Virus record (IMG/VR): IMGVR_UViG_2529293148_000011
From: a virus
Taxonomy: Duplodnaviria > Heunggongvirae > Uroviricota > Caudoviricetes
Reading direction: 5' to 3' (one strand)
DNA length: 9,637 bases
This document shows positions 1,511 through 6,721 of this stretch, one piece after another. The position numbers were made by a program, and so were the translations under genes. The notes beneath the pieces are model-generated. The model made no database searches and was not told the DNA's origin. It saw nothing but the letters and a program-made list of their open reading frames with translations. The stretch's first letter is position 1; every line of letters starts with the position of its first letter.

Positions 1511-1629
1511 GGAAAAAATTGAATAAATTCAAAATCCTGAAAGTGTCCCGCCTTATGAATAAGAAGGTGAGCGAATTAGATGATTAATCCTTTATATTCA
1601 ATGCATTAAGTTTGTTTTTGAGTGGTTTT

Positions 1630-1818: not shown

Positions 1819-2049
1819 TTACTCTGCAGGTGAAGTCGGCCACTCAATATCAGGTGCAGTTGATGTATCAACACGATTCAACAATACCCGATATTTATTC
1901 CATGCCTCCAGCAACGATCTTTCTTCCTCCTTTGCGATTTCCAGATCTACAGCATCCTGCAGTGGCGCAATATACTCACTGAATTCCTGGGTGTAGAACT
2001 GTGTGGTGACGGTCTTCCAGCCATTCGGCTCCTGCTGTATCGAAGCATA
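1819..2049 (-). pseudogene. tfa: Tail fibre assembly protein (lambda Tfa type), 3' fragment without a start
   Basis: The - strand translates as ...[53 protein letters not shown]-stop, matching the conserved lambda/e14 Tfa C-terminus. The frame is closed by TAG at 2050-2052 with no ATG or GTG, so only about 77 codons remain. Not in the ORF track because it has no start. Confidence 0.7.
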
Positions 2050-2141
2050 CTAGGCTATTTCAATATCGCTATGCTGCGGCAGCATTTAACCCCTTGTAAT
2101 TCATCGCCATAATTGATTTAATTCACAAACAAAACTATAAC

Positions 2142-2810
2142 ATGGTGAAATTAATGAAAAAAAACACAGATGATGGGGCTAAAATTTACACACCACTTAC
2201 CCTAAAGCTTTATGACTGGTGGGTTTTGGGAGTATCAAATCGGCTTGCATGGGGATGTCCTACAAAGGAATACCTTCTTCCACACTTTCTGGAACATTTA
2301 GGTAACAACCATCTGGATATTGGTGTTGGAACTGGGTTTTACCTTACTCACGTACCTGAGAGTAGTCTGATATCTTTAATGGATTTGAACGAAGCTAGCC
2401 TGAACGCGGCATCTACAAGGGCTGGGGAATCAAAAATTAAACATAAAATTAGCCATGATGTTTTTGAACCTTATCCCGCGGCGTTACATGGTCAATTTGA
2501 TTCCATTTCCATGTTTTACCTTCTTCACTGCCTGCCTGGAAATATATCTACAAAAAGCTGTGTAATACGCAATGCGGCGCAGGCCTTAACTGACGATGGA
2601 ACTCTATACGGAGCCACAATTCTTGGCGATGGAGTTGTGCACAATAGCTTCGGTCAAAAACTGATGCGCATTTACAATCAGAAAGGCATCTTTTCAAACA
2701 CAAAAGATTCCGAAGAAGGCTTAACGCATATACTCTCAGAGCATTTCGAGAATGTTAAAACCAAGGTTCAAGGTACTGTAGTAATGTTTTCCGCTTCAGG
2801 GAAAAAATAG
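2142..2810 (+). CDS. Class I SAM-dependent methyltransferase (small-molecule type), likely cargo/moron gene
   Basis: Motif I LDIGVGTG and a post-II-like FDSISMFYLLHCLP. No DPPY/NPPY or PCQ DNA-methyltransferase motifs. The ATG at 2154 has a better SD (GGTGA at 2144-2148) than the ATG at 2142. May correspond to e14 YmfD, but that is an unverified recollection. Confidence 0.8.
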   Translation: MVKLMKKNTDDGAKIYTPLTLKLYDWWVLGVSNRLAWGCPTKEYLLPHFLEHLGNNHLDIGVGTGFYLTHVPESSLISLMDLNEASLNAASTRAGESKIKHKISHDVFEPYPAALHGQFDSISMFYLLHCLPGNISTKSCVIRNAAQALTDDGTLYGATILGDGVVHNSFGQKLMRIYNQKGIFSNTKDSEEGLTHILSEHFENVKTKVQGTVVMFSASGKK

Positions 2811-2817
2811 CATCCAA

Positions 2818-2850
2818 CCGCAGCACGTTCTTGCTTAAGACGTGCTGCGG
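2818..2850 (-). terminator. Hairpin (10-bp stem CCGCAGCACG/CGTGCTGCGG, 13-nt loop) between the convergent methyltransferase gene and the pin/tfa remnant
   Basis: Lies 15 nt 3' of the - strand remnant stop. On the - strand a T-run follows after 10 nt (TTGGATGCTATTTTTT). Confidence 0.4.
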
Positions 2851-2864
2851 CATAATCCCAATGA

Positions 2865-3191
2865 TTACTCCATGACAGGGTTCGTAGGCCACTCAATATC
2901 AGGTGCAGTTGATGTATCAACACGATTCAGCAACACCCGATACTTTTTCCAGGCTTCCACCACCAGCACGACAAGATGCCGCATACAGTGACCCAGTCAG
3001 TCCAGTTTCCAGACAACCAGTGCGTCACCTTTTTGAAGGCGCTTTAAAGCACGTTTTAATCCAGGTCGGCCTGTCCTTGTTCCGCTTTATTTATCTTCAA
3101 ATATTTGTTCACATCCTGCACAAACAAGAGCGTTTCGTTGCAGGTCTGTATTCTGGTCATTTGTTGATACCCTTACATAACCAATCAGCAC
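2865..3191 (-). pseudogene. pin: Serine DNA invertase (Pin/Gin/Hin/Cin family) N-terminal remnant fused to a tfa 3' end; two in-frame stops
   Basis: From GTG at 3191..3189 (SD GGGAGA upstream) the - strand reads VLIGYVRVSTNDQNTDLQRNALVCAGCEQIFEDK[84 protein letters not shown]. The first ~77 codons match the invertase N-terminus including the catalytic-serine region. Stops are TAA at 3089..3087 and TGA at 2999..2997. The last ~31 codons are a Tfa C-terminus. Confidence 0.75.
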
Positions 3192-3245
3192 ACTGAATCT
3201 CCCGTCCAAAAGCGCAAATCATGCCATGCAGGCCGGATACGGCCA

Positions 3246-3271
3246 TTATCTAAAACCTCGGTTTACAGGAA
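3246..3271. other. Din-family invertase crossover site (gix/pix/hix-like): TTATCTAAAACC TC GGTTTACAGGAA
   Basis: Two 12-bp half-sites, TTATCnAAAACC and GGTTTACAGGAA (reverse complement TTCCTGTAAACC), around a 2-bp core; this fits gix as recalled. It sits 55 bp upstream of the pin start and abuts the orphan fibre segment. Confidence 0.6.
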
Positions 3272-3649
3272 ACGGTAAATCAGGCTTCTGGCGCATTACA
3301 GAAAAACCAGAACGGTGCAGATATTCCGGTAAAAGATACCTTCACCAAAAATATTGGTGCCTGCCGCGCATATAGAGCATGGCTGAATATTGGTGGCGAT
3401 AGTCAGATCTGGACAACCGCGCAATTTATTTCGTGGCTGGAGAGTCAGGGGGCATTTAACCATCCTTACTGGATGTGCAAAGGCTCATGGGCTTATGCAA
3501 ATAATAAGGTTATTACAGATACAGGTTGCGGAAATATTTGTCTTGCAGGTGCTGTGGTGGAAGTTATTGGCACTCGCGGCGCAATGACCATACGCGTTAC
3601 TACTCCGAGTACGTCCTGCGGCGTCTGTCGCCCATTTTTCCGAAAATAA
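3254..3649 (+). pseudogene. Orphan variable C-terminal segment of a tail fibre protein (Sv-type, Mu/P1/e14-like), no start codon
   Basis: A 132-codon open frame starts inside the crossover site: NLGLQETVNQASGALQKNQNGADIPVKDTFTKNIGACRAYRAWLNIGGDSQIWTTAQFISWLESQGAFNHPYWMCKGSWAYANNKVITDTGCGNICLAGAVVEVIGTRGAMTIRVTTPSTSCGV... This Gly/Trp/Cys-rich sequence is characteristic of invertible-segment fibre tips as recalled. A TAA at 3251-3253 inside the site closes the frame upstream. Confidence 0.5.
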
Positions 3650-3788
3650 ATGCTCCGACAATACGTGCCACATAACCTGCACCGTAGGTTCCCATTGCCA
3701 GAATTAACGCCATTGCCGTTGATGATTCAGGAAAAAATATTTCATGAAACACTAACGCTGCGCCGAGCGAATATAACTGGAAACCCAT
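3600..3788 (-). pseudogene. N-terminal fragment (TM1-TM2) of an MFS metabolite:H+ symporter-type transporter
   Basis: 62-aa ORF MGFQLYSLGAALVFHEIFFPESSTAMALILAMGTYGAGYVARIVGAFIFGKMGDRRRR... resembles the N-terminus of ShiA/ProP-type MFS proteins (ALVFNREFFP...FGHFGDRLGRKR in ShiA as recalled). An in-frame TGA lies immediately upstream of the Met, and the ORF ends inside the fibre-tip segment, so only about 60 codons of a roughly 430-codon gene remain. Confidence 0.45.
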
Positions 3789-4008
3789 GATTCATAGATA
3801 TTTTTTACCATCCTGTGGATTTCTGGGCGTTTTCTAAGTTTTTTTAAGATGGTTGTATTTTTTCTAAAAACTCCTGAACTCGATTTTGCTGTTTGTCTGA
3901 GGCCTTTTTATGTCCCATATATGCCCCAAGGTGCCCCATGTAAATCCAATTCAACTCAAAGCGTCCATGTTCAATATTTTTACAAGGGGCTGGCATATCA
4001 ATGTTTTT

Positions 4009-4584
4009 TTATTGCGTAACGTCAAACGCTCGGATTGAGCGTAAATCATCAAGATTATTCAGTTCTTCCTTCATCTCCCGCTGACGCTGATAAATCTCGT
4101 TATTGCGATCGACCTGTGCCTGCGCCATTGCTGTCGCCAGTTCTTCCAGTTCCGGCATTGACAGTTTCACCTGTTGATTATCGGCATCACCCCATGCAAG
4201 GGCGGTTAGTGCCGTATCAGATTTCGCCGCCATTACTACCGGATAAAGACGGGCCATTGAGTCGGGGCCAGCGTTCCAGGTGCGACCGTTCCATTCAAAG
4301 GTGAACGGCAGTGCTTCCTGTTCTGTGCGCCATGCCTCGATTTCCTGCTTTTTGGCATCCTTCGCCGCGGCGATAAGTTCCGGCGTGACAGTGAAAGGGG
4401 CGATTTCGCCCCATTTGCCGTTCTGCAACTCTTCCCAGATGCGCTGGCCTGTCGGTGCGGTATCATCCTGCATGGCGGTATACGGGACGAATTCCGTTTC
4501 ACCTTCAAATAACACCTCGCAGTCAACCGCACCATTTTCAAGATAATGGGCGTTTCTGATGCCCTTTACCGCTCTGATTTTCAT
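4009..4584 (-). CDS. tfa: Tail fibre assembly protein / chaperone
   Basis: 191-aa ORF starting 13 nt after the stf stop, with SD GGGGAA. Size and position immediately 3' of the side tail fibre gene match Tfa-type chaperones. The C-terminus lacks the [16 protein letters not shown] motif, so it is a different Tfa subfamily from the two remnants. Confidence 0.7.
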   Translation of the reverse strand: MKIRAVKGIRNAHYLENGAVDCEVLFEGETEFVPYTAMQDDTAPTGQRIWEELQNGKWGEIAPFTVTPELIAAAKDAKKQEIEAWRTEQEALPFTFEWNGRTWNAGPDSMARLYPVVMAAKSDTALTALAWGDADNQQVKLSMPELEELATAMAQAQVDRNNEIYQRQREMKEELNNLDDLRSIRAFDVTQ

Positions 4585-4597
4585 GTTTTATTCCCCG

Positions 4598-6721
4598 TTA
4601 CTCGATGCGCACAAACAGGCAGATACGACCGGTTATTCCTTTAGAGTCCCTGACCCCGGATAGCGCCATATAACGCCCCGGGAAAGTGTACCCTGTAGCT
4701 CCTGCACTCGGTGCGGAATTGTAGGAGCCAACCCCAGGAGAAGATATTAAGCACGAAAGATTAACTCCGCCCAGTTGTGACCCCTGCACCACATCACCCA
4801 GGCCAATATTGATTTCTTTATCCCCGAAAGTTGTTCCGCGATAAACAGCCAGCACTGGAACACCCACTGCCGGGTATTTGAAATATGAGCCTGAGCCCGC
4901 CGTCCTGGACAGCAGGAAGGCCAGCGAATCGCCGTCGTAAATAATGGGGCTTACTGTTGCATTCCAGTTGTTTCCACTAAAGCGGTAAGTCAGGAAATGA
5001 ATACTATGCTCACCTTCGTAATACTGGTTAAAACACAGCAGTGTTTTGAATTTGCGTATTGTGTCCGACTCATCGTTATCAAAGGGCGACCACATCACAT
5101 CAATGATGCCGTTAAATTTCTTGGTGCCTACCAGCAGCATGGAAGAATCCGCAAGACTGACCGCATAACGCCCCGGCGTGGCCACTTTCAGCCATTCAAC
5201 AAAATCGGCCTGCCCGTTAAATGTCAGGGCTTCGGTGCTGGCAAATGCCTGACCGAACCCATGCATACCGGACAGTGCCAGCCTGCCCGGTGCGCGGTCG
5301 CGGATATAGCTCTGGGGTTCCATCGTAGCAGCAGCTTTCAGTCCAAGCTCCGTGCGCATGTCTCCAGGCGTGTTTCGTGACAGTAATAAGCGAGCCTTGT
5401 TGCTGCATGGAATTGCTTTTGCCTCAAAGTTATCACCAAAATAAAGGAGAGAGTTTTGTCCCACCCCTACCTTGCTGATATTGGTTAACGTATTGTTAAG
5501 CGGCTGTTTACCTGCCAGTGCTTTAGTAACCGTTGTCGCAAAGTTCGGGTCATTGCCCAGCGCTGCTGCCAGCTCGTTCAGCGTGTCCAGGGCTTCCGGT
5601 GACGAGTCAACCAGCGCAGCAAGCAGTTTGCGAACAAATGCCGCGTTCGCTGTTTCCAGACCGGCAGCATCGTCCGGTGGGGTTGGTGTGGTGGGTGTGC
5701 CGGTGAATGCCGGGCTGTCCAGCGGCGCTTTTGTTTTCGTCTCGTCCATGACGGTTTTGACGGCTTTTGGTGTGGCTGCCAGTTCCTCGCTGTCGTTGTC
5801 TGTATCACTACAGAGTTGCACCAGGCCTTTTTCTGTTGTGGAAGCATTGCTTCCCTTCAGGTCATCAACAATCCGTTGCGCCTCGTCCCTGTGCTGTTTC
5901 GCTTCCTGCGCATTGCCTGCGCTCGCATCCTGGCTGGCCTTCGCCTGCCGGGCGTATTCGGCAGCGTTATTTTCATGGCCCAGCGCAACATTTGCCGCAT
6001 TTTCTGCACTGGTCGCAGCCAAAGATGCTGCTTCCTTATACTGACTGGCGCGTCCGGCTGCATCAACCGATTCATTCCGCGCTGCCCCTGATGCCTGAGC
6101 ACTGTTTTCTGCCTCATTCGCAAAACGCTCTGCGTCATCACGGGCCGTTTCGGTTGCTGTCACATCCTGTGCAGTCTGTTGTGCGCTTCCGGCTGCATTA
6201 TCAGCGTGACTTTTTGCGTTCTGCTCGCTTTTTGCAGCCGCTTCGGCGCTCTGCTGTGCCTGATTTTTCAGCTCTTCTGCCTTATTTTTACTGTCAAGAG
6301 CAGAGGTCGCTGCGTTTGTTGCTGTATCCGCTGCCGACTCTGCTCTTTTACGGTCATCAGTGACCTGCTCTGACTGCCGGGTAACTGCATCCACCATTTC
6401 CTCAAAACGCTTCATCACCTCCGGACGTAAATCACCATCCTTTGGTGCATCCAGAAACGCGTTCAGTGTCCCAGGTGTGTCAGTCGGTGCCACATAAATA
6501 TCCCCGACACGGGTTGGCTGCCAGCCGTTACGGTTAAGCGCAACCTCGTAATACCCCGGCTCAGCCTCAATCACATAAGCACCGTTATTGTCCGTCACAC
6601 AAGTGGCGACAACGTGTGCCACAACGGTCGGACTGGTTCTTCTGGCCCGCAGTTCAATCGCACAATTTACGACAGGCTTACCCGCCCCGTCTTTCAGCAC
6701 ACCTGAAATCTTTACTGCCAT
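4598..6721 (-). CDS. stf: Side tail fibre protein (lambda Stf-like)
   Basis: N-terminus MAVKISGVLKDGAGKPV matches lambda Stf. A long Ala/Ser/Gln/Glu-rich shaft is followed by LAATPKAVKTVMDETKTKAPLDSPAFTGTP...LNELAAALGNDPNFATTVTKALAGKQP, a conserved Stf region. The likely start is ATG 6721..6719 (GGGG SD); the track's GTG at 6727 is two codons upstream. Confidence 0.9.
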   Translation of the reverse strand: MAVKISGVLKDGAGKPVVNCAIELRARRTSPTVVAHVVATCVTDNNGAYVIEAEPGYYEVALNRNGWQPTRVGDIYVAPTDTPGTLNAFLDAPKDGDLRPEVMKRFEEMVDAVTRQSEQVTDDRKRAESAADTATNAATSALDSKNKAEELKNQAQQSAEAAAKSEQNAKSHADNAAGSAQQTAQDVTATETARDDAERFANEAENSAQASGAARNESVDAAGRASQYKEAASLAATSAENAANVALGHENNAAEYARQAKASQDASAGNAQEAKQHRDEAQRIVDDLKGSNASTTEKGLVQLCSDTDNDSEELAATPKAVKTVMDETKTKAPLDSPAFTGTPTTPTPPDDAAGLETANAAFVRKLLAALVDSSPEALDTLNELAAALGNDPNFATTVTKALAGKQPLNNTLTNISKVGVGQNSLLYFGDNFEAKAIPCSNKARLLLSRNTPGDMRTELGLKAAATMEPQSYIRDRAPGRLALSGMHGFGQAFASTEALTFNGQADFVEWLKVATPGRYAVSLADSSMLLVGTKKFNGIIDVMWSPFDNDESDTIRKFKTLLCFNQYYEGEHSIHFLTYRFSGNNWNATVSPIIYDGDSLAFLLSRTAGSGSYFKYPAVGVPVLAVYRGTTFGDKEINIGLGDVVQGSQLGGVNLSCLISSPGVGSYNSAPSAGATGYTFPGRYMALSGVRDSKGITGRICLFVRIE

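Follow-up and report, generated by a model that had tools for sequence, protein, structure and literature searches.

How does a methyltransferase gene come to lie between two copies of the end of a tail-fibre assembly gene? The question is raised by a stretch of caudoviral DNA of 9,637 nucleotides (IMG/VR record IMGVR_UViG_2529293148_000011), which we analysed as a whole and refer to as the window. A sequence-only reading of it had proposed that the gene either was inserted by recombination at the conserved 3' end of tfa or can be looped out between the two repeats. Lambdoid phages are known for such cargo, the so-called morons or b-region genes found between the tail-fibre genes and the attachment site, which belong to the modular and mosaic genome model of Hendrix and colleagues. 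The methyltransferase of the window resembles this cargo in several respects: it stands alone with a promoter-like site and a hairpin of its own, runs antisense to the late operon, is of bacterial ancestry and sits at the boundary between tail fibre and att. It differs in being placed between two coding-sequence ends that supply homology for exchange.

We propose, with a probability of roughly 0.8, that positions 1819-2962 represent a widespread lambdoid cargo cassette, in which the junction between tfaX and ybcY was formed a single time and which was later moved, converted or lost by homologous recombination within the tfa ends. The features on which this proposal is built are collected in Table 1.

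Table 1 Features of the cassette and its surroundings in the window.
Feature	Position	Strand	Remarks
Copy of the last 32 nt of potB (att core)	1556..1587		bounds the cassette on the integrase side; potB ends at position 6032 of the ETEC locus L003
tfaX-type remnant (copy 1)	1819..2085	-	stop codon 1819-1821; 89-codon ORF in relatives
Exact 43-nt repeat, copy 1	1838..1880		also where the window passes from a potB-att-type flank into the cassette
Sigma-70-like promoter match upstream of the methyltransferase	2086..2113	+	consensus match only
Class I SAM-dependent methyltransferase, YbcY family (phrog_2132)	2142..2810	+	intact, 222-codon ORF
Strong hairpin between the convergent methyltransferase and tfa ends	2818..2850		-23 and -27.9 kcal/mol, z -6.2 and -5.4
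lambda-type tfa stub (copy 2)	2865..2962	-	last 32 codons and stop; Caudo_TAP E=4e-12; no upstream tfa sequence
Exact 43-nt repeat, copy 2	2887..2929		in other loci copy 2 differs from the 43-mer by at least 1 nt
gin' pseudogene	2963..3191	-	first ~76 codons of a Mu-type serine invertase, two in-frame stops; Resolvase E=3.7e-21

The direct repeat is a pair of tail-fibre gene ends

Ungapped realignment at an offset of 1049 nt bears out the reported 43-bp identity: 1838-1880 and 2887-2929 agree in all 43 nucleotides, for which the chance expectation of an exact pair in 9.6 kb is 6e-19. The identity of about 90 percent claimed for the surroundings is likewise found, over the 79 nt of 1835-1913 and 2884-2962, and this pair is the sole long repeat when the window is searched against itself. 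If a 3-nt indel is allowed, the similarity widens to 1816-1913 and 2862-2962 (~85% over 101 columns), extending past both tfa stop codons.

The assignment of both copies to the Tfa C-terminus on the minus strand, 1049 nt apart and with the methyltransferase ORF (2142-2810, plus strand) between them, also stands. Each matches the C-terminal end of Caudo_TAP (PF02413) above the cut-off of 22.1 bits, copy 1 with 82.6 bits over profile positions 77-128 of 131 (E=3.7e-23) and copy 2 with 46.8 bits over positions 104-130 (E=4e-12). The direct repeat is simply two tfa ends. What the sequence-only reading had missed is that no live tfa gene ends in either of them.

Copy 1, which matches phrog_2341 with E=1.7e-45, is not a complete tfa gene. 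Its codons 27-88 are 75% identical to lambda orf-194 (Tfa), and in tblastn searches the similarity to true Tfa proteins starts no earlier than residue 27; we take this part to correspond to about the last 60 residues of lambda Tfa. The N-terminal ~130 residues of Tfa are missing, and codons 1-26 are unrelated to the protein. Matches to these codons come solely from 18 phage records, those with a coverage of the ORF of 80% or more, and the records inspected carry the cassette. In the window itself the reading frame is closed by a nonsense codon at 2050-2052, where TGG has become TAG.

Copy 2 is no complete tfa either, as its 32 codons are fused in frame to gin' at 2962/2963. The same fusion is seen in ETEC prophages at potB, and a gin fusion of this kind occurs in 9 of the 80 loci surveyed below. 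The right-hand tfa was thus cut down to its last 32 codons through illegitimate fusion to a Mu-type gin that is now dead. The apparent working tail-fibre accessory gene of the window lies elsewhere, at 4009-4584, and belongs to a different family from both copies (DUF4376, phrog_1141).

How special is the perfect core? The exact 43-mer is present in 75 IMG/VR stretches and occurs twice only in the window's own contig (L008/L093, 100% identity). In other loci the identity between the two copies is 85-91% across 132-227 nt, and a flank of ~70 nt with the hairpin is often included in the repeat. Judged from these alignments, the copies are diverged paralogues.

A known lambdoid cassette in decayed form

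The arrangement has long been annotated. In prophage DLP12 of E. coli K-12 MG1655 the order tfaD-ybcY-tfaX-appY-ompT is given, with ybcY as a pseudogene on the opposite strand. Gene order, orientation and the tfaX-ybcY junction are those of the window, and nucleotide identity is 96.7% over 1839-2962. The two loci differ in what has decayed: DLP12 has a nearly full-length tfaD next to its ybcY pseudogene, whereas the window combines an intact ybcY with a tfaX interrupted by the nonsense codon and with an upstream tfa reduced to the stub fused to gin'. They also differ in the outer flank, which is appY-ompT in DLP12 and the potB att site with an integrase in the window. What we see in the window is a decayed version of the annotated tfaD-ybcY-tfaX cassette, fused to gin.

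The cassette gene order is also found in the inducible phages PhiR26_1, 2G7b and PhiR68_2. PhiR26_1 and 2G7b carry a full tfa, the methyltransferase and a partial tfa, followed further on by ompT, and the bracket of PhiR68_2 holds an intact pin together with ynaE and ybcY. With the methyltransferase protein as query, 80 IMG/VR loci were collected, and in 79 of them the same spacing separates the methyltransferase gene from the inner part of tfaX. As this junction is alike in nearly all surveyed loci and in DLP12, the two parts were probably joined once, in an old cassette. The second tfa end is more variable: in 58 of the 80 loci it lies 77 nt beyond the stop codon of the methyltransferase, in 10 it is 1.7-2.9 kb off, and 12 loci have none. 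Where copy 2 is absent (loci of the L009 type), the hairpin forms the right-hand limit of the conserved cassette and homology stops at 2850.

The sequence-only reading had named an ancestral and invariant arrangement among related genomes as grounds for its refutation. Constancy is indeed found at the inner tfaX-ybcY junction, yet the outer flanks of the cassette vary from locus to locus.

Mosaic joints within the tfa ends

Can the points at which the cassette was exchanged be located? On the left, positions 1556-1837 are 99.3% identical to L006, a prophage integrated at potB that has one full tfa and lacks the methyltransferase, and they do not align with the cassette locus L055. Positions 1881-2141 are 98-99% identical to copy 1 of L055 and of PhiR26_1 (L001), and either 84% identical or unalignable to L006. 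By these comparisons the window is demonstrably a mosaic, with its left crossover placed within the 43-nt core.

A different joint is found in an ETEC prophage (L003) that shares the outer flank of the window, where functional-type tfa bases continue to ~1975 and tfaX-type bases begin at ~1976-1985. Several further copy-1 alleles are likewise chimeric, with functional-type tfa joined to tfaX-type sequence. Since the switch points are scattered along the homology, they fit homologous exchange or conversion and not a fixed-site recombinase.

Such exchange has been observed experimentally: homology in stf/tfa lets lambda take over markers from the prophages Rac and Qin, with a frequency of ~2e-6 (De Paepe et al. 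2014, PMC3945230). The joints of the window are of the same kind as these Red- or RecA-dependent, divergence-tolerant exchanges between phage and prophage. The reported events are intermolecular and extend over the identity regions of stf and tfa, whereas the window presents two short direct repeats within one genome.

Taken together, the proposed history would run as follows. To one side of the methyltransferase lies a tail-fibre assembly gene, represented by its 3' end with the terminator hairpin; to the other lie ~180 nt from the 3' part of another, distinct tfa of lambda type, namely tfaX. Between them a methyltransferase of the ybcY family, of bacterial chromosomal ancestry, runs against the late operon. 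The tfaX-ybcY junction, identical everywhere, would have formed once, and the cassette would then have been transferred between phages, partly converted and sometimes lost by RecA- or Red-mediated homologous recombination inside the conserved tfa ends.

Empty and filled alleles

If cargo can be lost in this way, alleles with one tfa and no methyltransferase should be found in relatives, as the sequence-only reading had envisaged. Three synthetic junctions of this form were searched in 5,426 complete E. coli genomes. The deletion product expected from the window (gin'-tfa stub-att) was found in 0 of the 5,426 genomes, and so was that of the PhiR26_1 type. The third search met a sister family of prophages, flanked by a DUF4376 remnant and adjoining ompW in 6 of 7 inspected loci. 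The flanks of this family are present in 381 genomes, with 20 contiguous empty alleles and ~361 filled ones. Strain NMBU-W13E19, with an empty allele (L162), and strain 600055, with a filled one (L163), share the chromosomal site as well as the neighbours to its left and right. In NMBU-W13E19 the empty allele is of copy-1 type up to the core and of functional type beyond, with the switch in the core itself. The existence of empty and filled alleles with identical flanks, and of a switch within the core, therefore indicates that recombination at the tfa ends adds or removes the cargo.

The proposal of insertion or loop-out at the repeats thus survives at the level of the family, with breakpoints in the tfa ends. 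It does not extend to a fresh insertion in this lineage, given the junction shared by 79 of 80 loci, and for the window-specific product the genomes gave no example. For the window itself, a perfect core of 43 nt within ~100 nt of homology would be enough for a rare loop-out of the 1049-nt segment by RecA or Red, which would shed the methyltransferase as a non-replicating circle.

Which of the two states came first? One could suppose that the single-tfa allele is ancestral, that a circular tfa'-ybcY molecule brings the cassette in by a Campbell-type single crossover, or another prophage does so by a double one, and that loss is negligible. A full tfa with hairpin, the cargo and a truncated tfa with hairpin are exactly what a single crossover of a circle with a truncated tfa would leave behind, and single-tfa prophages with the same att flank do occur. 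The chimera in NMBU-W13E19 is expected from a crossover between the repeats, and equally from the gain of a cassette from a filled donor; the diagnostic SNPs for polarity lie in copy-1 alleles that are themselves chimeric. Against gain as the only direction speaks that loss needs no donor and is mechanistically simpler. The 20 empty alleles, moreover, carry several tfa haplotypes, each resembling copy-2 haplotypes of filled alleles. In NMBU-W13E19 two tfaX-type bases within the functional-type tfa hint at descent from a filled allele. We therefore consider one-way gain a possible but unlikely account, and favour a cassette that has been both moved and lost.

Could the remnant be functional?

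A second alternative sees copy 1 as a functional gene retained next to the methyltransferase, either a candidate small RNA or an 89-residue mini-Tfa, and the repeat as a by-product of that function. The Rfam family IS009 (RF02111), a candidate E. coli sRNA tied to phage sequences, covers the tfaX remnant, with a match at 1859-2062 on the minus strand across the whole model (113.5 bits, E=1e-26). This score stays below the gathering threshold of 117 bits, and copy 2 reaches 45.2 bits. The predicted RNA fold of copy 1 is no better than that of shuffled sequence (z=+0.85), and the sequence is homologous to coding tfa. On the protein side, the 89-codon ORF has a PHROG of its own, the phrog_2341 mentioned above, is open in 85 of 121 related loci and shows a pN/pS of 0.34. 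This low ratio is confounded, because functional tfa genes have served as a source of conversion, and the nonsense codon in the window as well as lesions elsewhere in the ORF in other loci speak against a conserved product. We judge a functional copy 1 to be improbable.

A more far-reaching form of our proposal would regard the tfa 3' end as a portable docking sequence for reversible, Campbell-like gain and loss of cargo, be it ybcY or pin-ynaE-ybcY, at the boundary of tail fibre and att, with a TfaX ORF of 89 residues or an IS009 transcript that might be functional and co-selected with the methyltransferase. This is a speculative extension to which we give little credence. If true, it would imply a standing presence/absence polymorphism, with ~5% empty alleles in one prophage family.

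Invertase and transposon

The gin remnant next to copy 2, the intact pin inside the PhiR68_2 bracket and a near-palindrome, GTTGATGTATCAAC, within the repeat core might suggest that an invertase of the Gin/Pin type made or resolves the arrangement at a pseudo-gix in the tfa end. At up to 3 mismatches, the sole gix-like site of the window is at 3246-3271, with no second match and none within the repeats, and the switch points of relatives are spread along the homology (1838-1880, ~1976-1985). The gin of the window is not an intact recombinase: it retains only the N-terminal Resolvase domain, is truncated at about codon 76 and carries two in-frame stops. Positions 3001-3623 are ~95% identical to gin and the S' end of Mu and D108. 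The window thus keeps gin and S' homology and one gix-like site of the Mu G segment, and departs from it in the broken gin, the single gix and the fragmentary S'. This gin is a dead relic outside the repeat mechanism, and an invertase origin is very unlikely.

Cargo between direct repeats superficially resembles a transposon insertion, and yet a target-site duplication by a mobile element that carried the methyltransferase into tfa in this lineage is hardly credible and can be excluded, given that there is no transposase ORF, that terminal inverted repeats are missing at the cassette ends, that the repeats (79-227 nt, 9-15% diverged, from two tfa lineages) are unlike a short identical target duplication, and that the junction shared with K-12 and with 79 of 80 phage loci is old and not local.

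For a lambdoid phage, cargo between direct repeats is then the long-annotated ybcY cassette, and its mosaicism is routine, adding little beyond a good annotation. The tfa ends provide a clean natural example of crossover points for the gain and loss of a gene that is probably expressed by the lysogen.

The cargo: a methyltransferase of the YbcY family

The product of the cargo gene matches phrog_2132 over 218 of 218 profile positions (E=3.5e-156), and four Pfam families (Methyltransf_12, _23, _25 and _11) are all above their cut-offs. The true start is probably the fifth codon, an invariant methionine (M5) at 2154, which would yield a protein of 218 residues like its homologues. In the glycine-rich SAM motif LDIGVGTG, the residues D59, G61, G63, T64 and G65 are invariant. 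An AlphaFold2 model (pLDDT 89.8) predicts the alternating strands and helices of a Rossmann fold.

What might the enzyme methylate? The top structural matches in the PDB are all class I methyltransferases. The best is a bacterial phosphatidylethanolamine N-methyltransferase, followed by the juvenile hormone acid methyltransferase JHAMT and phosphoethanolamine methyltransferases, and natural-product methyltransferases appear as well. A sequence search of the PDB gave only marginal matches, to UbiG and JHAMT. A DNA methyltransferase with a role in restriction-modification or anti-restriction was considered and rejected: DNA methylases are absent among the listed top 50 structural matches, no DNA methylase family of Pfam or NCBIfam matches the protein, NCBIfam as a whole gives nothing above cut-off, PADLOC returns no match, and the nearest structures act on lipids and small molecules. 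Judged by predicted fold and family, the protein is most likely a small-molecule or lipid methyltransferase expressed by the lysogen, and not a DNA methylase. A literature search on ybcY and tfaX retrieved no functional study, only mentions of context and work on the tfaX/appY promoter region.

As to its origin, homologues of 56-66% identity are found in Salmonella and Enterobacter as stand-alone chromosomal genes in a non-prophage context, and the phage gene is therefore a captured bacterial one. Its own expression signals are of unequal weight. The promoter upstream is a match to the consensus from a scan for promoters and terminators whose number of sites was not above that in shuffled sequence. 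The same scan missed the strong hairpin downstream because it has no T-run.

Among E. coli prophages the gene is very common, and of the 145 loci examined 144 have it intact. A pooled pN/pS of 0.62 was set aside, as it included a frameshifted allele; over the 39 intact alleles the value is 0.22, in line with a conserved protein. With a predicted fold like that of lipid and small-molecule methyltransferases, it is the one part of the locus that merits experimental follow-up.

The gin-tfa fusion and the neighbouring Mu relic

The last 32 codons of tfa are joined in frame to a pseudogene of the Mu-type invertase gin, and the joint at 2962/2963 shows microhomology of only about 4 nt. This fusion is not restricted to the window, as it also occurs in ETEC prophages at potB, in nine IMG/VR loci, and in AR434, where it lies within a prfC-adjacent remnant.

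Next to the fusion we find a gix-like site that agrees at 25 of 26 nucleotides with the Mu gixL sequence; 0 such matches are expected by chance. A second, partner gix site was not found in the window at up to 3 mismatches. Together with the truncated S' fragment, the site is left over, as a frozen relic, from an invertible tail-fibre segment.

Features of the integration module and the tail-fibre end
Feature	Position	Strand	Remarks
xis	46-324
int	293-1411
Copy of the potB 3' end (32 nt)	1556-1587
gin pseudogene, Mu-type invertase	2963-3191	-	about 76 codons, two in-frame stops
gix-like site	3246-3271		single copy in window
Mu S' fragment	3259-3623		truncated
ydfJ 5' fragment and adjoining stretch	3603-3788 (-) and 3624-4010		host transporter gene (MHS family) inside the phage

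From the tail fibre to the attachment site

The ydfJ fragment is adjoined by a putative DinI-like gene, so named by annotation in related E. coli records, followed by a DUF4376 gene. In 29 E. coli genomes this same stretch marks one end of a prophage integrated in ydfJ; the region between tail fibre and att is thus pieced together from the ends of several different phages. The cargo distal to the tail fibre is directly adjoined by xis, int and the copy of the potB 3' end. The gene order in the window is vegetative or circular rather than that of a prophage; the corresponding IMG/VR contig terminates at window position 1575.

The two tfa ends

Copy 2 of the tfa 3' end carries an A at window position 2925, the base typical of tfaX, where copy 2 of other loci has a G. 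This A lengthens the perfect match between the two copies from 38 to 43 nt, and could stem from a short conversion tract between them or from a point change. In copy 1, the tfaX remnant, a TGG to TAG nonsense codon (2050-2052) interrupts the 89-codon ORF (phrog_2341), which is unbroken in 85 of 121 related loci. The candidate sRNA family IS009 (Rfam RF02111) matches the remnant at 1859-2062 (-) with 113.5 bits, slightly short of its threshold (117 bits); for copy 2, at 2908-2987 (-), the score is 45 bits. The fold predicted for the match shows no improvement over shuffled sequence. What the family models seems to be the coding sequence of tfa.

Cargo between the tfa ends

Homologues of the methyltransferase with 56-66% identity are found in Salmonella and Enterobacter loci (L171-L175) as single chromosomal genes. 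Their neighbours are ABC transporter, cytochrome b561 and hrpA-type genes, and the surroundings contain no phage genes. In the inducible phage PhiR68_2 (L176) the stretch from tfa to tfaX (2994-6265) contains ybcY together with a ynaE-family gene and an intact recombinase gene of the PinQ/PinR type, so the cargo that the tfa ends enclose varies in size. One IMG/VR locus (L032), which is without tfaX, is the sole exception to the conserved tfaX-ybcY junction; here gin fragments flank the methyltransferase on both sides (3661-3946 and 4822 onward). In AR434 the methyltransferase is deleted, with the equivalent of window 2116-2774 missing, and this loss is a different deletion, of a non-repeat type.
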